Source of the DNA: Acidobacteriota bacterium
Lineage (GTDB): Bacteria; Acidobacteriota; UBA890; WLXD01
Direction of reading: 5' to 3'
NCBI GenBank assembly: GCA_963666215.2
Contig: CAXWPL010000005.1
Coordinates: forward strand, 64,001 to 128,000
Length of the DNA stretch: 64,000 nt
Shown one piece after another: positions 1,612-12,413 of this stretch. The translations under genes were made by a program, and so were the position numbers. The notes beneath the pieces are model-generated. The model saw nothing but the letters and a program-made list of their open reading frames with translations, was not told the origin of the DNA and ran no database searches. How positions within the stretch are numbered: position 1 is the stretch's first letter; the number at the start of each line of letters is the position of its first letter.

Positions 1612-3113
1612 GCGGCGCGCCTGCGGATCTGAGCGCTCGTGTGACAGCCGATGCTGCTCGCGGCGTCGGTTGGGTGGCGACGACGGCGCTGGTGACTCGG
1701 GTATTGGGGTTCGTGGCCCTCGCTATCTTGGCACGGATCATCGCGCCCGAGTACTTCGGTCTGGTCGCGATCGCGACGGCTGTCCTTATCTTTGTCGATG
1801 CTCTCGGGGACGTAGGCGTCAGCGCGGCGCTGGTCTATCTGCCATCTCGCGTAGCTGCAGCCGTCCGCGTCAGTCTCGTCGTGAATTGCGCGTTGTCGGC
1901 GGCGTGGTTGCTCGCCGGCTGGCTGTCTGCCCCGTGGCTTGCCCGGTTCTTTGACGAGCCGGATGCAACGATGGTCCTCCGCGCGATGCTCTGGATCGTC
2001 CCGCTTCGATTCCTCGGCAACACGCCAGATGCGTTGCTCCGGCGAGATCTGCGATTTCGCGCGAGGGTGCGGCCGGAGCTCGCCGGCGCCCTCCTCAGGG
2101 CGGTGGTCTCGGTCGGTGCTGCGGTCGGCGGCGCGGGTGTTTGGAGCCTGGTGGTGGGTCATCTCGTTGGCCAGGCGGTCACCACGGCTCTTCTGTGGCG
2201 CGCTGTGACGTGGCCGCCGCGGGCTCGCCTCGAGGCAGGCGTCGCGCAGACGATGCTGACCTATGGCGTCGGCATCACCGCGGTCGACGTCCTGGCGGCG
2301 TTGACCCACCATTTCGACCTTCTCGTCGTCGGCCGCACGCTCGGTGCCACGGCCCTCGGCTACTACCAGATCGGGGCCCGCGTGCCGGAAGTGAGCCTCG
2401 GGCTGCTCGCCTGGGTCACGGCCAAGGTCCTTTTCCCAGCGTTCTCTCGACTGCACGCCGGAGGAGTTGACACCGGTCCATTGTGGCTGGGCGCGCTTCG
2501 GGCGATGGCGTCGATCGCCCTCCCGGTAGGGATCACGCTGGCGATTCTGGCCGAGCCAATCGTTATGCTCCTTTTCGGCGAAGCCTGGCGGCCTTCGGTC
2601 CCCGTGGTGCGCGCTCTGGCGCTTTACTTAACGGTCCGTGCGCTCGGCACGCATGCCGGCGATGTCCTGAAGGGTACGGGCCGAACGGGTCTTCTAGCGA
2701 TGCTCGGAGTGATCAAGGCGGCAATGCTGATGCCACTGCTGATAGCGCTGGCGCCGCACGGCATCGCAGCCGTAGCGACCGGTCTGGCGGCCATAGGCGC
2801 GGTAGGGTCGCTTCTTACCGTGGCGGTCGTCGCCCGGCTCTCGAACGTGCGGGCGGCTCAGATCGTCCGAGCGCTGGCGCCTTCCTCTGTCGCGACGGCG
2901 GGGCTTGCGGTCTGGCTTGGCGGAGCCGTGTTTCTCCGATGGTCGTCAGGCGCGTACCTGATCCCGACCGTGATCGCCGGGATGCTGCTGTACGCACTAG
3001 TCCTTCGGATCTCCGACCCCCGACTGTATGAACGGATCGTCGACGGGATTGTCAGTGTCACCGCGCCAGCCTTCGCGATCGTGCCTGCCGGTTCGGGTGG
3101 TGGCAAGTCATGA
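1608..3113 (+). CDS. Wzx/WzxC-type polysaccharide flippase
   Basis: ATG at 1608 overlaps the upstream stop. LARIIAPEYFGLVA, LLRRDLRFR, GVWSLVVG and many TM segments. Confidence 0.9.
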   Translation: MSGAPADLSARVTADAARGVGWVATTALVTRVLGFVALAILARIIAPEYFGLVAIATAVLIFVDALGDVGVSAALVYLPSRVAAAVRVSLVVNCALSAAWLLAGWLSAPWLARFFDEPDATMVLRAMLWIVPLRFLGNTPDALLRRDLRFRARVRPELAGALLRAVVSVGAAVGGAGVWSLVVGHLVGQAVTTALLWRAVTWPPRARLEAGVAQTMLTYGVGITAVDVLAALTHHFDLLVVGRTLGATALGYYQIGARVPEVSLGLLAWVTAKVLFPAFSRLHAGGVDTGPLWLGALRAMASIALPVGITLAILAEPIVMLLFGEAWRPSVPVVRALALYLTVRALGTHAGDVLKGTGRTGLLAMLGVIKAAMLMPLLIALAPHGIAAVATGLAAIGAVGSLLTVAVVARLSNVRAAQIVRALAPSSVATAGLAVWLGGAVFLRWSSGAYLIPTVIAGMLLYALVLRISDPRLYERIVDGIVSVTAPAFAIVPAGSGGGKS

Positions 3114-8641: not shown

Positions 8642-8670
8642 AGGAAACCGTAGAACGGGCACTGAAGCTC

Positions 8671-9759
8671 CTATAGATCGCAAGCGGGGGAGAGAGATTC
8701 TTCCGTGTCGCGTGGTGGTGGGAGGAGGTTGTAGACCTCGCGGGCAACGTAGCGCTTGAGGCAGCGGATGATTTCCTTCTTGGAGAGGCCTTCGGTGGTG
8801 CGGCGCTCCACGTAAGCGATGGTTGGCACGTGCCATCGCATCCGGACGATCACAGCGCGGTAGAGGGCGGTATTGGCCTGCCGGTTTCCCCCTCGGTTGA
8901 GCCGATGGCGGCCGCCGGTCTTGCCGGATCCGGCCGGTATTGGGCAGACGCCACAGAGCTTGGCGAAGGCCGCTTCGGAGCGGATCCGGTCGGTGTTGTC
9001 GCCGGCAGTCACGAGGAGCTCGCCGGCGATATCGGGCCCGATCCCGAACGCGTCGAGCAGGCGGGGTGCAGTCGCGGTAGTGAGTTTCTCCAGGCGTTTG
9101 GTGTGGGTCTTGATCTCCTCGTGCAGATCAAGCCACCGTCGGGCGAGCGAGCAGAGCACGTGACGCATCGTCACGTTGGGATCAGCCGGGTCCCCGTCGC
9201 CGTCGAGCCCGACACAGGTCGTCATCAGCTTATGGTCGCTGAGCGGTTCCAGCTTCGCTCGCAACTCATCGGAGGCCGTCACCAACGTCGCCTTGAGCGT
9301 CACGATCGCCTGGGTATGGGCTTTCACGGCAGTGTTGCGGGCGATCCGGGTGAGGCGGATCGCCTCAACGGCACCGTCGGAGACCTTGGGAGTTGCCGTG
9401 GCCTGCCCGGCCAGGACCTGACGGGCTGCATGTTCGGCGTCGATCGGATCGCTCTTACCGGCGAGGCGGCGTTGCCCTGCTCGAGGTGGCCGACTGACCT
9501 CGATCACTGTCTGTGCGTGGCGCCGCAAGAACCTGGCAAGGCCCATTCCGTAGCTGCCGGTCCCCTCCACCCCGAAGACGTGGACACGACCCAAGGTCTT
9601 GGCCCACGCCAACAGCCCCGCGTAGCCGCTGTTTGTGACCGAGAGGTAGTACTCGCCGAGACGGCCACCAAGGCCGTCAATCACGACGGCGACGTGTTCG
9701 TCCTTGTGAGTGTCGACACCGACGATGACATCGGTGCGCTCGAGTGCGATGCTGGACAT
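8671..9759 (-). CDS. IS110-family recombinase/transposase
   Basis: DEDD motifs GVDTHK, GVEGTGSYG, KSDPIDA. C-terminal domain with SEAAFA, PAGSG, RLNRGGNRQAN, IIRCLKRY. RBS GAAGGAGG upstream. Confidence 0.96.
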   Translation of the reverse strand: MSSIALERTDVIVGVDTHKDEHVAVVIDGLGGRLGEYYLSVTNSGYAGLLAWAKTLGRVHVFGVEGTGSYGMGLARFLRRHAQTVIEVSRPPRAGQRRLAGKSDPIDAEHAARQVLAGQATATPKVSDGAVEAIRLTRIARNTAVKAHTQAIVTLKATLVTASDELRAKLEPLSDHKLMTTCVGLDGDGDPADPNVTMRHVLCSLARRWLDLHEEIKTHTKRLEKLTTATAPRLLDAFGIGPDIAGELLVTAGDNTDRIRSEAAFAKLCGVCPIPAGSGKTGGRHRLNRGGNRQANTALYRAVIVRMRWHVPTIAYVERRTTEGLSKKEIIRCLKRYVAREVYNLLPPPRDTEESLSPACDL

Positions 9760-9935
9760 GGCTGTTGGCCTCCTTCACGGGTCAATGGTCCAGCTCGTCG
9801 GTCGGGCGGCCAGGACAAGACTGTGATGGGACCTGTTCAGATCAGGCTCCTATGAGGTCACTGCCCGTCCGGCTGGCGAGCAGCCTGATCGGTGCGCCAC
9901 CCCAGCCGACCGACAGGTCAGTGCAAGGACACCAC

Positions 9936-11344
9936 GGGGATGTCCCACCGTCCGTTGAACTAAGGCGACGGTGAAGTGGTTGGGGATTGTTACGCAGTAC
10001 GGCGCTCCTGCTCAAGGTGAGCGTCGACGGCGGCGTTCAGTGCGGCATCGAGCTTGGCGATGTCGCGGTAGCCACGGACCCTCCGGAAGTGGCTCTCGGC
10101 CTCGATGAGCGCGGTAACCGCCCATCGAACGATCATGCTCCCGGAGCGCCATCTCTTTACGTTGCGGCTGACGTGTTTGATCGTGCCGTTGAGATTCTCG
10201 ATCGTGTTCGTTGAACGCAACGTTCGAAGCAGCGGCCCCTGCACTCCGAGCCGGGTGACGGTGAGCGTCTCTTGCATTCCTTCTCTGAGCGAGGCCGCGG
10301 CACCCGGGTGATCCGTCTCCAGCTCTTTGGCCACGGCGTCGAGCTGCTTGGTCGCTGCCGCTGCCGTCTCCGCCTTCCAGGCCTTGCGGATCTTCGCCGC
10401 GAACCAGGGCCGGATATGCCCTGGCAGATGTTCCAAGACGTTCTTGATCTTGTGGACACGGCAGCGCTGGATCAGGGCCCACTCGCCGAACGTGTCGCGC
10501 ACTGCTTTACGGAGGCCCTTGGAGCCATCGATTACCACCAACCGCGCCCGTTCGACGGGCATGCCGCGTTCAATCAACTGCCGCAGCAGCGATCGGCACA
10601 CACGTGAACTCTCGGTGGTGCCTTCTACGACGCCCAGAACATGCTTGACGCCGTCCGTATCGATGCCCATGGCGATCACCAACAGGTGCTTGCCCATGTG
10701 CGTACCGTCGATCACCAGCACCGGCAAGTCCACCTCGTTGAGTGGTTGGGCCAGGTACTGCTGCACCTGCCGGGCGGTACGCGCTACGAACCGCCGCGAC
10801 ACACTCGAGCGACTCGTCCCGGATGAAGTTCGGCCTTCGGGCAGCTGCTCCAACGAGCGCTCATACTTGCGCGTCGTGACGCCGCACAGGATCTGCTCCA
10901 CGGCGCGCTCTTCGAGCGGGTCGGTGGCCTTGAACCTCTCCCAGTGCGGCAGCGGCAGCTCTTGGCCATCGACGCTCCGAGCCCGCGGCTTGCGTACCTT
11001 GACCCGCCGGCCGCCCATCACCAGCGAGCCCTCGTCGTAGCCGTGTCGGTACGCCCGCCGCTGCTGTGACCGTGCGTGGCGTTCTCCGCATAGCTCAGCT
11101 CTGTCTTCTTCCAGCAGCGAACCCAACACCCCGAAGCCCGCGTCCATGACCAGCGCTCGTAGATCCGATCGCGCCGCTACCACTGCCTCCAGGAGCGGGT
11201 TCTCTTGGCGCTCCGCTTTCCTACTTGTCTCTGTTCTGCGACTCTTGCTCATGACGGTGATCCTCCATGCCAGTGGATTGACCCCGACACACTATCGAGG
11301 TCGGATCACCGTCACCCTTTTTCAACGGAGCCTGTGACATCCCC
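9936..11344 (-). mobile_element. IS256-family element, 1409 bp
   Basis: Imperfect IRs GGGGATGTCCCACCGTCCGTTGAA / TTCAACGGAGCCTGTGACATCCCC. 8-bp target duplication GACACCAC at 9928-9935 and 11345-11352. Confidence 0.93.
9990..11252 (-). CDS. IS256 (Mutator-type) DDE transposase
   Basis: GVTTRKY, SRSSVSR, VIDGTH, VIDGSKGL, QRCRVHKIKN, STNTIENLN. Confidence 0.93.
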   Translation of the reverse strand: MSKSRRTETSRKAERQENPLLEAVVAARSDLRALVMDAGFGVLGSLLEEDRAELCGERHARSQQRRAYRHGYDEGSLVMGGRRVKVRKPRARSVDGQELPLPHWERFKATDPLEERAVEQILCGVTTRKYERSLEQLPEGRTSSGTSRSSVSRRFVARTARQVQQYLAQPLNEVDLPVLVIDGTHMGKHLLVIAMGIDTDGVKHVLGVVEGTTESSRVCRSLLRQLIERGMPVERARLVVIDGSKGLRKAVRDTFGEWALIQRCRVHKIKNVLEHLPGHIRPWFAAKIRKAWKAETAAAATKQLDAVAKELETDHPGAAASLREGMQETLTVTRLGVQGPLLRTLRSTNTIENLNGTIKHVSRNVKRWRSGSMIVRWAVTALIEAESHFRRVRGYRDIAKLDAALNAAVDAHLEQERRTA

Positions 11345-11465
11345 GACACCACGGTCGGTCAACTTATCGGTCAGGCCGACCGGAGCAGCGCCCCAGCATC
11401 ATCACAGTCAACTTAACTTTCCGAACCTTGTCCCCGGGCAATCTTGCTTCGAGGCAGACCGCTCT

Positions 11466-12164
11466 TCAAGGGGTGGTGGCCACCTGCCAATCCATCAACG
11501 ATCGGGTACGCAGCAGTCGGTAGTGTGCTGCTCGCAAGCGGTGTCGTCCGAGTCGGAAGAGGTTGAGGATGACACCTTGCACAGCCAAAAACTGTTGAGC
11601 TTGCGACGCTGACTTGAATCTCCGCATCTGGCGTTCTCGTTGTCGAGTGGGCTGGTGCGAGGCCTCGCATCGGTTGTTCGCGTAGCGCGCAGTGACATGC
11701 TCGACCGAAGGCATCACGACATGGTGCGCGGCCCCATAACTTCTGAGCTTGTCGGTAATCAACCATCGGGGTGCACTCCCCTGCCCTTTCAGCAACTTGC
11801 GGAAGAAGCGCTTGGCCGCGCGAGCGCTACGTCGCCGCTGGACCAAGATATCGATCACATCTCCGTCCTGGTCGACCGCTCGCCACAGGTAGTGGCGCCG
11901 GCCGCGGATCCTCACGAAGACCTCGTCCAGGAACCAAGTGTCACCCAGACGACCTTGCCGCCGCCGTAGCTTGCGAGCGTAGTCAGGGCCGAACTTCGCA
12001 CACCACCGTCGAATCGTCTCGTAGGTGACCTCGACTCCGCGCTCGGCTAGGAGATCTTCCACGTCTCGGAAGCTCAGGCAGAACCGGTGGTAGAGCCAGA
12101 CGGAGTGGCTGATGATCTCGATCGGGAAACGGTGTCTGCGATATCGGCTGACGGCGTTGCTCAT
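11466..12164 (-). CDS. IS6-family DDE transposase
   Basis: YRRHRFP, SFRDVEDLLAERG, WFLDEVF, YLWRAVDQDG, ITDKLRSY, NNRCEASH. Confidence 0.96.
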   Translation of the reverse strand: MSNAVSRYRRHRFPIEIISHSVWLYHRFCLSFRDVEDLLAERGVEVTYETIRRWCAKFGPDYARKLRRRQGRLGDTWFLDEVFVRIRGRRHYLWRAVDQDGDVIDILVQRRRSARAAKRFFRKLLKGQGSAPRWLITDKLRSYGAAHHVVMPSVEHVTARYANNRCEASHQPTRQRERQMRRFKSASQAQQFLAVQGVILNLFRLGRHRLRAAHYRLLRTRSLMDWQVATTP

Positions 12165-12204
12165 GGCCGTACTCTGTCAGCAGCGCCTTTAAGTTGACAG
12201 TGCC

Positions 12205-12413
12205 CCTCGAACGGCCCCCGTCGGCAGCTTCCCATCCCCGCTCGATGTCGGCGACGATCGCTCCAGGGCAGCGGGATCCATGGGCGCCGCGGACGACGCT
12301 TCCTCGTCAGGGATAGGTACCGCCTGACACGCCGCCGCTGCGATCATCGCCAACCCGAGCAACGATCCAGCGAGGTCTCTTGGCTTCACGCTCATTCCCA
12401 CCATCTCCTTCAT
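12205..12413 (-). pseudogene. N-terminal remnant of a lipoprotein, truncated at the IS6 end
   Basis: Lipobox-like LLGLAMIAAAAC signal. The reading frame shifts and runs into the IS6 IR. Confidence 0.5.

Follow-up and report, generated by a model that had tools for sequence, protein, structure and literature searches.

One-base identity between target and element at an IS110-group crossover, with guide ends suggestive of a shifted handshake

Introduction

The window, i.e., the whole 64,000-nucleotide stretch of Acidobacteriota DNA analysed here, contains an IS110-family element at 8664–11407, with its sense on the minus strand, which is lodged in an IS6-family element, within the latter's right inverted repeat. 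At the crossover, target and element have a single base in common, as the earlier note had proposed from the window alone, and the same holds among relatives, at left junctions in 91 of 100 and at right junctions in 93 of 93, and at empty sites. It is likely that this IS110-group element inserted into the IS6 repeat by means of a bridge RNA encoded in its left end, with handshake pairing by the guide ends, and that an IS256-family element later broke the RNA gene. The term core is used here for shared sequence, not for a measured cleavage stagger.

Work on bridge recombinases presumes a dinucleotide core common to target and donor and chooses sites accordingly. Cores of about 1–5 nt are already in print as a general statement (Durrant), and in the accessible parts of the literature this was the only statement found that touches on a one-base core with a shifted handshake; bioRxiv supplements may list cores for each orthologue. 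In the seekRNA paper, the terms crossover, dinucleotide, single base and shared are all absent.

Results

The element, its junctions and its host

The features at the two junctions are as follows.

8657–8663, minus strand: outer part of the split IS6 right inverted repeat, AGTGCCC; right target
8664–8683, minus strand: right end, with TTGCGA (−35-like), the left donor site and T-T-C; relatives' right ends compared
8664–11406, minus strand: IS110-family element including the nested IS256; junctions read, edges in agreement with 100 left and 93 right junctions of relatives
11407–11407, minus strand: position-9 C of the left junction, the sole base common to target and element; a relative's empty and occupied sites compared
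11407–11416, minus strand: inner part of the split IS6 right inverted repeat, TTAAGTTGAC; left target, positions 0–9
11466–12164, minus strand: IS6-family transposase gene (host element); Pfam DDE_Tnp_IS240, 1.3e-37
12189–12205, minus strand: intact left inverted repeat of the IS6 element, GGGCACTGTCAACTTAA, which doubles as an unoccupied target copy

Read on the minus strand, the left junction is TTAAGTTGA-C-TGTGATG (C at 11407) and the right junction is GGAGCTT-C-AGTGCC (C at 8664). The latter C is donor position 9, and the T at 11406 is the first element base past the crossover. The earlier note had claimed that a single C restores a perfect IS6 repeat, and this holds: the two parts (11416–11407 plus 8663–8657) match GGGCACTGTCAACTTAA at 17 of 17 positions only if one C is counted once. 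Every string quoted there was also found at its place in the window. The host has a DDE_Tnp_IS240 transposase flanked by 17-bp terminal inverted repeats and belongs to the IS6 family, in which terminal inverted repeats starting GGCACTG are typical. Besides this IS6 element's own left repeat, three more 16-nt copies of the uninterrupted repeat are present in the same genome. The right end of the IS110-family element comprises the −35-like TTGCGA at 8683–8678 and the left donor site ATAGGAGC at 8674–8667, followed by T-T-C as positions 7–9; it is very short, the recombinase stop codon lying 6 nt ahead of the position-9 C.

The remainder of the element consists of the recombinase gene and a left end in two parts, with the IS256-family element between them.

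8671–9759, minus strand: IS110-family recombinase gene, 362 aa, intact; Pfam and alignment to IS621 chain 8wt6_A
9760–9935, minus strand: left end, second part; alignment with relatives, nhmmer profile positions 87–224 at 9934–9792, E 1.7e-31
9936–11344, minus strand: nested IS256-family element, transposase at 9990–11252; Pfam Transposase_mut 1.5e-45, 8-bp duplication
11345–11406, minus strand: left end, first part; alignment with relatives, nhmmer profile positions 2–93 at 11405–11345, E 2.2e-5

The recombinase matches the Pfam models DEDD_Tnp_IS110 (PF01548, 1.4e-17) and Transposase_20 (PF02371, 8.5e-17), both above the cut-offs. Its candidate catalytic residues D16, E65, D104, D107 and S278 align with the IS621 motif positions in chain 8wt6_A, which are given as D11, E60, D102, D105 and S241 in the accessible text of Durrant 2024. 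By sequence comparison, the protein therefore has the RuvC-like DEDD domain and the Tnp domain with a catalytic serine that mark the IS110 group. The element also has the long non-coding left end upstream of the gene and the very short right end of this group; the left end measures 231 nt from the C at 11407 (230 nt of element proper), the nested IS256 and one duplication copy being excluded. The element is thus an IS110-group element of the bridge-RNA type, a kind that is already known.

The nested IS256 element

The IS256-family element, with a Mutator-type transposase, imperfect terminal repeats and a target duplication, is located in the target-binding loop's cap, where it separates the left from the right target guide. 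This split was absent from the earlier note. Because the IS256 inserted between the loop halves, 1.4 kb of raw sequence now separates them. The 8-bp duplication, GTGGTGTC, is found at 11352–11345 and 9935–9928, and the usual target duplication of the IS256 family is 8–9 bp. The terminal 25 nt of this IS256 occur in 31 further copies in the genome. The IS256-family element inserted in the target-loop cap after the IS110 insertion and broke the guide RNA gene, and the single window copy, unable to make an intact bridge RNA any longer, is probably immobile.

The element has no second copy in its own genome, and a search at E 1e-30 of 10 genomes from its family gave none either. No copy exceeded 78% over the full length in genome or metagenome contigs; two fragments at 90–92% were found, both without the left end. 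An uninterrupted version of the window element was therefore not found. The contigs of four public runs contained no joint skipping the IS110 or the IS256, no circle junction and no empty site, and those of three of the four carried the identical nested arrangement. One low-depth contig, from run X1, ends exactly at 11408, which is too weak for an empty-site variant.

Guide sequences in the left end

The left end was rejoined by a script, removing the IS256 and one duplication copy, before alignment, and the rejoined sequence is colinear with relatives, 16 in a first alignment and 55 in a second. A profile built from 31 intact ones matches the raw window by nhmmer in two pieces, both of which abut the IS256. 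The first part of the left end includes the right donor site TGTGATG (11406–11400), the −10-like GATGAT (11403–11398), the target-loop stem's 5′ arm and the cap's 5′ half. A single-sequence fold of the rejoined left end buries the guides and was set aside. An Rfam scan of the locus and one intact relative returned no bridge-RNA family, only chance microRNA and snoRNA matches at E > 0.3.

The left target guide, TAAGTTGAC at 11366–11358, has the same sense as the left half of the target as far as position 8. Antisense to target positions 14–9, the right target guide consists of GCACT (9924–9920), a G for position 9 (9919), an A for the handshake to donor T8 (9918) and C (9917), the string GCACTGA occupying 9924–9918. 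The donor guides match the right and left ends of the element likewise, with the polarity and 14-nt frame of IS621. The left donor guide is ATAGGAGCCT at 9853–9844, and the right donor guide consists of CATCACA (9828–9822), G (9821) and T-C (9820–9819, handshake to target A8 and G7); as one string, CATCACAGTC at 9828–9819, it is the reverse complement of the left junction at 11400–11409. The guides match the target over 9 + 7 nt and the element's own ends over 8 + 10 nt. As expected of the IS110 group, the guides of the donor-binding loop match the element ends in the window (ATAGGAGC and CATCACAG), and those of the target-binding loop match the insertion-site halves on opposite strands in both window and clade, with 8/8 (left) and 5/5 (right) positions matched in the window.

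The string TAAGTTGAC occurs three times in the window (0.11 expected; 0 of 100 shuffles reach three) and CATCACAGTC twice (0.12 expected; 0 of 100 reach two). ATAGGAGC also occurs twice, with 0.92 expected and 23 of 100 shuffles reaching two, and alone is not significant. The ATAGGAGC match is placed where relatives carry theirs.

Clade survey and empty sites

The survey covered 160 elements (159 relatives and the window element), of which 122 rows were kept, 31 elements being unparsed and 7 more rows ambiguous. It comprises 71 distinct guide sets and 103 distinct flank pairs (90 with both flanks), which overcount independent events because many loci come from few genomes. The clade spans marine Acidimicrobiia-like genomes, Vicinamibacterales and a Rhodococcus plasmid, and its targets are the catalytic-motif codon pair of IS3 transposase genes or the IS6 terminal repeat.

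The left target guide agrees with its flank at 6.13 of 8 positions (4.39 when shuffled) and the right target guide at 4.25 of 5 (3.54 when shuffled), with 0 of 5000 shuffles as high in either case. Guides of IS3-targeting, IS6-repeat-targeting and other lineages differ, tracking their flanks. The A/G variant of the donor guide is concordant with the right end in 90 of 90, and at position 12 the right donor guide and the left end are paired, again in 90/90 (A:T 69, G:C 21). The guide ends are uniform across the 71 sets (right target G-A-N, right donor G-T-C and left donor C-T, 70 each), where the position-9 G of both right guides and the donor-guide AGG[AG]GC served as anchors and are therefore invariant by construction. 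In the RNA alignment of relatives, the outer stem of the target loop shows compensatory changes at many pairs, and the cap stem is also supported. Donor-loop pairs are mostly invariant with little covariation, and RNAalifold has the left donor guide paired to the right one's end, which runs against an open donor loop.

A −35-like hexamer of the TTGAC type is present in 72 of 73 distinct right ends of relatives, and a −10-like hexamer lies 17–19 nt from it, beyond the joint that a circle would form, the distance being 17 or 18 nt in 71 of the 72; TTGCGA of the window is one base shorter than TTGACG-A of the clade. A promoter would thus be rebuilt, as judged in silico, across the right-end/left-end joint of a circle.

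At left junctions (n = 100), positions 7–9 read GAC in 91, GAT in 4, GTC in 3, GGC in 1 and TGC in 1, and at right junctions N-T-C in 93/93. For the clade, target positions 7–9 are G-A-C and the right end of the element is N-T-C; at positions 8–9 the target has A-C and the element T-C, and therefore only position 9 is common. A dinucleotide core identical in target and donor and spanned by all four guides, IS621-like in the narrow sense, was found in neither the window nor the clade. The earlier note had called for an alignment of junctions from many homologues, which shows the one-base pattern to be a rule of the clade, and for empty sites, which in relatives assign GAC to the target.

True empty sites were found in two other genomes. 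In one of them (G011), six unoccupied IS3 copies read ..TATGA-C-AATGCC, and four occupied copies have the left junction ..TATGAC/TGTGAG and the right junction ..GGGGCTTC/AATGCC, the latter read from the corresponding loci L058–L061. In the other (G012), the target has A-T and the donor T-C, i.e., T versus C at position 9, leaving no base in common. In 49 events, the flanks form an IS3 transposase gene split as [YWF]D/N[AGS], with open frames on both sides in 48. In four relatives, the left flank completes the Pfam rve model and the right flank begins at rve_3 position 16, which is consistent with contiguity but by itself is no proof; the empty sites decided.

Handshake-like guide ends

In the right target guide, the position-9 G is followed by A, and in the right donor guide by U-C. 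Both mismatch the cognate DNA and complement the non-cognate partner, i.e., donor T8 for the A and target A8 and G7 for the U-C, just as the earlier note had read the last base of the right target guide and the last two (TC) of the right donor guide. Its comparison with post-exchange pairing is borne out in that these terminal bases follow the IS621 handshake principle as laid out in the accessible text of Hiraizumi 2024. In the donor loop both bases behave in this way; in the target loop the first base does, and the second pairs with donor position 7 in 41 of 90. The handshake bases are invariant in the clade, and the pairing is therefore read from complementarity, not covariation. On this comparison, the clade pattern appears to be the known handshake of IS621 shifted one base toward the cut. 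The distinct guide geometry also proposed in the note holds only weakly: the donor-loop cap is shorter and a 2-nt bulge is missing, but the polarity, 14-nt register and target-loop spacing of IS621 are kept.

Discussion

Proposed mechanism

On the model of IS621 and CazIS110, the top strands would both be cut after position 9 and then swapped, the handshake bases would capture the incoming strand after top-strand exchange, favouring insertion and disfavouring reversal, and top-strand information would pass to the junctions. The IS621 guide map, its handshake guides and the top-strand cut after position 9 are described in the parts of Hiraizumi 2024 that were accessible, and two preprints (10.1101/2025.10.25.684509 and 10.64898/2026.08.31.748434) report, in their accessible text, that top-strand transfer dominates. 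Three left junctions read GTC, donor-type at position 8, and the outcome is therefore not always target-type. We tentatively put forward, as a possibility that may well prove wrong, that the crossover requires no base identity of target and donor, that guide pairing alone sets the joint, a guide G facing the position-9 C or T, and that the position-8 cross-match makes insertion nearly one-way. The proposed cross-match at position 8 would be hard-wired, target A with the donor-loop U and donor T with the target-loop A.

Alternatives concern the chemistry and the role of the guide ends. In the IS621 structural model, the bottom-strand cut lies between top positions 5 and 6, and in the present clade the bottom strands might likewise be cut and exchanged several bases leftward, with the mismatches at positions 6–8 repaired or segregated; the one-base core would then be a statement about sequence identity only, not about mechanism. 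Hiraizumi 2024 places bottom-strand cleavage between 9* and 10* and allows that mismatches may be excised and repaired, and the donor-type T8 in 3 of 100 left junctions is what partial heteroduplex conversion would give. However, unbiased repair predicts about half bottom-strand outcomes, i.e., A8 at the right junction, which was seen in 0 of 93, and the two preprints describe top-strand transfer as dominant, so that this chemistry appears unlikely. Rather improbable, too, is the reading that the A and U-C of the right guides are kept for the RNA fold or for protein contact, the non-cognate complementarity being a coincidence at three positions. The bases could be kept for such reasons: there is no covariation, 70 of 71 guide sets are identical at the handshake positions, the next position has no consistent pairing (41/90), and the IS621 equivalents G80 and G165 touch the protein backbone in the accessible text of Hiraizumi 2024. 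Yet all three positions fit the non-cognate and misfit the cognate partner, a pattern shown experimentally, according to the accessible literature, to drive exchange in IS621, and target G7-A8 and donor T8 are near invariant though the rest of the target is freely reprogrammed.

The earlier note had named as its own refutation a TT core with GAC belonging to the element and an IS6 repeat that was imperfect before insertion. GAC does precede TG[TC]GA in nearly all relatives, as a terminus would, but it is present in unoccupied IS3 copies, it is the in-frame Asp codon of the interrupted gene in the 49 events, the left target guide spans it and covaries with the preceding bases, and the three further uninterrupted 16-nt repeat copies in the same genome also speak against this alternative, which is excluded by the Asp codon in unoccupied copies and is given next to no weight. 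Equally hard to credit is that the guide-like matches are due to chance and that no guide RNA gene occupies the left end. In the window, the 8-mer ATAGGAGC by itself falls short of significance and Rfam has no matching family, but chance is excluded at the sequence level by the 9-mer and 10-mer tests, the permutation tests, the 90/90 concordances and the conserved covarying stem.

Implications

A large natural clade works with a single base in common, or with none in one documented case, and its handshake bases adjoin the cut. This pattern agrees with the recent view in which the product is defined by the top strand alone, and it suggests that matched cores are a habit of IS621 and no family-wide rule. 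If no identity is needed, bridge recombinases would not be confined to matched-core sites; since the donor-loop handshake is fixed, every reprogrammed target would then have to keep the short fixed string G-A-Y. The locus also illustrates clearly how mobile elements prey on one another, with an IS6 element entered by an IS110 element and that by an IS256 element.

Comparison with known systems

IS621 of E. coli, also of the IS110 group, has a recombinase with the DEDD motif and serine as in the window element, although protein similarity is weak (E 5.5e-6), and a guide RNA in the left end upstream of the gene. In both, the left guides are in the top-strand sense and the right guides antisense, the frame is 14 nt with the top-strand crossover after position 9, the two bases 3′ of each right guide complement the non-cognate DNA, and a promoter, putative in the window element, is split across the right-end/left-end joint. 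The target-loop spacer is 15 nt in IS621 versus 16 nt in the window element, the donor-loop spacer or cap is 26 nt versus 17 nt, and the 2-nt bulge of the IS621 right donor guide is missing from the window element. Positions 8–9 are a shared C-T in IS621, whereas in the clade they are A-C in targets and T-C in the element, and the handshake begins at position 7 in IS621 but at position 8 in the clade. Position 9 is a near-invariant T in IS621 and a C in the clade, where T is tolerated in targets; unlike in IS621, position 9 of the left target guide is not conserved in the clade.

IS4321 and IS5075, which belong to a different subgroup (IS1111), insert in the terminal repeats of Tn21-family transposons. 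Like the window element, they use the terminal inverted repeat of another mobile element as target.

ISCro4 is the same kind of system and gave the second structure match (9t56_A, E 1.5e-4). For IS622, 14-nt sites with a dinucleotide core and handshake bases at positions 6–7 are reported in the accessible part of a preprint (Perry 2025). IS622 and ISCro4 have a shared CT or GT core, and the design rules, as far as the accessible text gives them, need matched cores and unmatched positions 6–7; in the clade, unlike in these two, position 8 is unmatched too. CazIS110-1 of Caloranaerobacter azorensis is described as using mainly top-strand excision and integration in the accessible text of the preprint 10.1101/2025.10.25.684509, a mode that fits clade junctions carrying top-strand information, the likeness being one of published description. 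Elements of the IS1111 group have subterminal inverted repeats and a guide RNA downstream of the gene according to the accessible text of Siddiquee 2024, so that the guide region of the window element, upstream of its gene, is placed opposite to that of the IS1111 group (seekRNA).

Nested insertion of the IS110-family element

Read on the minus strand, the window contains three mobile elements nested in one another, with an IS6-family element outermost, the IS110-family element (8664-11407) within it, and an IS256-family element innermost.

Features of the nested elements
12205-12189, minus: IS6 left inverted repeat GGGCACTGTCAACTTAA, read from the sequence
12164-11466, minus: IS6-family transposase gene (Pfam DDE_Tnp_IS240, 1.3e-37)
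up to 11407 and from 8663 on, minus: IS6 right inverted repeat, split into TTAAGTTGAC and AGTGCCC, respectively
11366-11358, minus: left target guide
11352-11345 and 9935-9928, minus: 8-bp duplication GTGGTGTC flanking IS256
11344-9936, minus: IS256-family element in the non-coding left end of the IS110 element (Mutator-type transposase, 1.5e-45)
9924-9917, minus: right target guide
9759-8671, minus: IS110-family recombinase gene, 362 aa (DEDD_Tnp_IS110, 1.4e-17; Transposase_20, 8.5e-17)

The IS110 element occupies the gap between the two halves of the IS6 right repeat, and the 17/17 match between the two IS6 repeats is regained when one C is counted once. The uninterrupted 16-nt target has four perfect copies in the same genome, i.e., the left repeat of this IS6 (window 12204-12189) and three in paralogous IS6 elements (sequence C2, 6405, minus strand; sequence C4, 599776 and 963254). 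Four unoccupied copies would be expected if the element lost its activity early.

The IS256 terminus is fixed by its terminal 25 nt, which occur 31 further times in the genome. When IS256 and one copy of the duplication were set aside by script, the rejoined IS110 left end could be aligned, base for base, with the sequences that precede related recombinase genes. A nucleotide profile built from 31 intact relatives and searched against the raw window matches it twice (profile positions 2-93 at 11405-11345 and 87-224 at 9934-9792). Both matches adjoin IS256, and their overlap corresponds to the duplication; therefore, IS256 lies in the small cap hairpin between the target guides. The left end thus aligned appears to be a bridge-RNA gene broken by IS256.

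The IS110 element is single-copy in its genome, so that no second copy could supply the RNA; IS256 is abundant there, its end motif GGGGATGTCNCA occurring 56 times with both strands counted. Contigs from three public runs agree fully with the window over both borders of IS256, and a joint skipping the IS110 or the IS256 insertion was not found in the contigs of the public runs. This copy looks fixed and is probably immobile. In one run, a seawater metagenome, a single low-depth contig stops exactly at the IS110 left junction (window 11408), which might reflect a population variant or merely thin coverage.

Relatives and their target sites

The window copy is a defunct example, and its value lies in the clade rule that it brought to light. 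Searches with the recombinase yielded 79 loci from species-representative genomes and another 80 from metagenome contigs (54-78% identity, full length), giving 160 elements with that of the window. Loops were located by sequence anchors, in which the G at position 9 of each right guide and AGG[AG]GC of the donor guide were fixed, the other reported guide positions being left free; junctions and guides were then read. After the loss of 18 elements without a donor-loop anchor (mostly on cut contigs), 13 failing the target-loop pattern and 7 ambiguous rows, 122 rows were kept. They correspond to 103 distinct flank pairs, of which 90 have both flanks; since one genome often contributes many loci, the event counts are upper bounds on independent events.

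An IS3-family transposase gene is split between the codons [YWF]D and N[AGS] in 49 of the 90 events, with frames open on both sides in 48 of the 49. The split point is near the end of the integrase core, as in L041-L211 (L043:1127-1456, 2824-3003) and in L217, on a Rhodococcus rhodochrous plasmid. The bridge RNA of these relatives is directed at a conserved coding motif within a different transposon family, and every such insertion would thus knock out an IS3. A further 24 events are in IS6-repeat-like sites, like that of the window; when 25 loci were inspected, all except one belonging to these events, an IS6 transposase gene adjoined the junction in 12. The remaining 17 events are in other sites.

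Two groups of loci show unusual flanks or lengths. One Vicinamibacterales genome carries about 15 copies (L071-L086, L089) with the same flanks, ending in CCACCGCAGAC on the left and beginning with CTT[AT]CGGATAACGACG on the right. In these copies, the left junction and the right-end motif are ~1976 nt apart rather than the usual ~1350 nt, and so ~600 nt are extra after the recombinase gene, which may be a passenger or a composite repeat. L041 and L042, from one genome, have identical right flanks and different left flanks, which suggests inter-copy recombination or one-sided transfer.

One shared base at the crossover

The 14-nt IS621 frame consists of a left arm (positions 1-7), a core (8-9) and a right arm (10-14) (Hiraizumi 2024). 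In this frame, the window target reads TAAGTTG-AC-AGTGC and the would-be circle joint AGGAGCT-TC-TGTGA. Across the clade, positions 7-9 of the left junction (n = 100) are GAC in 91 cases, GAT in 4, GTC in 3, and GGC and TGC in 1 each, and the right junction is N-T-C in 93/93. Genome G011 provides real empty sites: six unoccupied IS3 copies all read TATGA-C-AATGCC, and four occupied copies (flank 99-100% identical) read TATGAC/TGTGAG at the left junction (slash) and GGGGCTTC/AATGCC at the right, the latter from the corresponding loci L058-L061. These empty sites and the clade junctions confirm the single shared base at the crossover that the earlier note had claimed. The alternative raised there, with GAC as part of the element, is ruled out by the unoccupied G011 IS3, in which GAC is present and encodes an Asp of the gene that the element interrupts.

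The unoccupied copy in genome G012 has TATGA-T-AACGCC and the occupied copies TATGAT/TGCGAGG, with GGAGCATC/AACGCC at the right junction of one occupied copy (L057). Position 9 also differs here (target T, element C), and no identical base is left there. At the insertion point, two other IS3 copies of G012 (L213 and L214, ~position 1910 each) are shorter by exactly 6 bp (AACGCC) and read TATGAT/TGCGCT, and the TGCGC kept resembles the TGCGA start of the element's left end. This could be the footprint of aberrant excision via a look-alike right-donor site in the flank, for which the "half-match" idea proposed in preprint 10.64898/2026.08.31.748434 is invoked, or an unrelated deletion.

Plain heteroduplex segregation would give A at position 8 in half of the right junctions, and it is seen in 0/93. 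Donor-type T is found at position 8 of three left junctions (L105, L110, L209; G-T-C instead of G-A-C), where either the target already had T or the heteroduplex was converted. In IS621, bottom-strand cleavage falls between 9* and 10*, which places it four bases to the left of the top-strand cut, and mismatches are suggested to be excised and repaired (Hiraizumi 2024); IS110 elements are described as moving chiefly by top-strand excision and integration (preprints 10.1101/2025.10.25.684509 and 10.64898/2026.08.31.748434). The natural junctions fit a top-strand cut after position 9 and a product with the top-strand sequence, the stagger not being readable from sequence.

Guide matches and handshake pairing

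The guide strings quoted in the earlier note are all present in the window, where the guide-like repeats of 9 nt (3 found vs. 0.11 expected) and 10 nt (2 vs. 0.12) are beyond chance and the 8-mer by itself is not significant (2 vs. 0.92). Among 53 distinct guide pairs, with one event each, the left target guide and its own left flank agree at 6.13 of 8 positions (4.39 when pairings are shuffled) and the right target guide and its own flank at 4.25 of 5 (3.54), values as high being reached in 0/5000 shuffles for either guide. Target and guides differ together from lineage to lineage. The donor guides follow the element's own ends: the A/G variant of the left donor guide is concordant with the right end in 90/90 events, and the right donor guide is paired at position 12 to the left end in 90/90 (A:T 69, G:C 21). 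Compensatory pairs are many in the target-loop outer stem, and the donor loop is too invariant for judging.

In IS621, bottom-strand positions 1-9 are paired to the left target guide, and the pairing of the right target guide with the top strand extends as far as position 8. Once the top strands have been exchanged, bases 81-82 (target loop) and 166-167 (donor loop) pair with the other DNA at its positions 7 and 6, the complex being locked when these handshake bases are paired with cognate DNA (Hiraizumi 2024). Among the 71 distinct guide sets of the clade, the right target guide ends G-A-N in 70, with G opposite position 9 and A unable to pair with target A8 but able to pair with donor T8. 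In 70/71, the right donor guide has G-U-C at its end, U-C being complementary to target A8 and G7, not to donor T8. The left target guide always has G-A at positions 7-8 and any base at position 9 (C 47, T 8, A 8, G 7), and the left donor guide ends C-U in 70/71, with U matching donor T8 and C opposite donor position 7, which is variable. For the target loop, pairing of the second handshake base with this donor position is seen in only 41/90 events.

The handshake-like character attributed to the guides by the earlier note is therefore borne out, in that the A of the right target guide and the U-C of the right donor guide mismatch their own DNA and match the partner's. The pairing itself is deduced from cross-complementarity at three positions rather than from covariation, because those guide bases never vary. 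The arrangement would be the known IS621 principle with its register shifted by one base in the direction of the cut; position 8, a shared core base in IS621, has apparently been turned into a handshake position.

Comparison with IS621 and other known systems

Cores of ~1-5 nt have been stated for IS110 elements (Durrant 2024), and handshake covariation has been reported across hundreds of orthologues (Hiraizumi 2024). In the accessible literature on IS110 and bridge recombinases, preprint supplements apart, we found neither a clade with a systematic target/donor difference at position 8 and cross-matched guides nor an insertion without any shared base.

The closest solved structure to the recombinase is IS621 (8wt6_A, E 5.5e-6), followed by ISCro4, and D16, E65, D104, D107 and S278 align with catalytic positions. 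An arginine stands, in a weak alignment, opposite IS621 N84, which is said to read the partner of core position 8 (Hiraizumi 2024).

Guide polarity and frame are the same as in IS621. The distance from position 9 of the left target guide to position 14 of the right is 16 nt vs. 15 in IS621, and that from position 8 of the left donor guide to position 14 of the right is 17 nt vs. 26; the two flipped-out uridines of IS621 have no counterpart here. The donor-loop difference is a cap hairpin of variable length inside the clade too (L044 has 11 nt more), and the distinct guide geometry proposed from the window is not seen.

Of 73 distinct right ends, 72 have a TTGAC-type hexamer at a distance of 12-15 nt from the end; a -10-like hexamer (CATGAT, GATGAT or GAGGAT) follows, counted over the would-be circle joint, at a spacing of 17-19 nt (17 or 18 nt in 71/72). 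The -35-like hexamer of the window, TTGCGA (8678-8683), is one base shorter than the clade consensus TTGACG + A, leaving 17 nt instead of 18 between it and the -10-like GATGAT. These predicted hexamers have the same layout as the split promoter described for IS621 (Durrant 2024 preprint).
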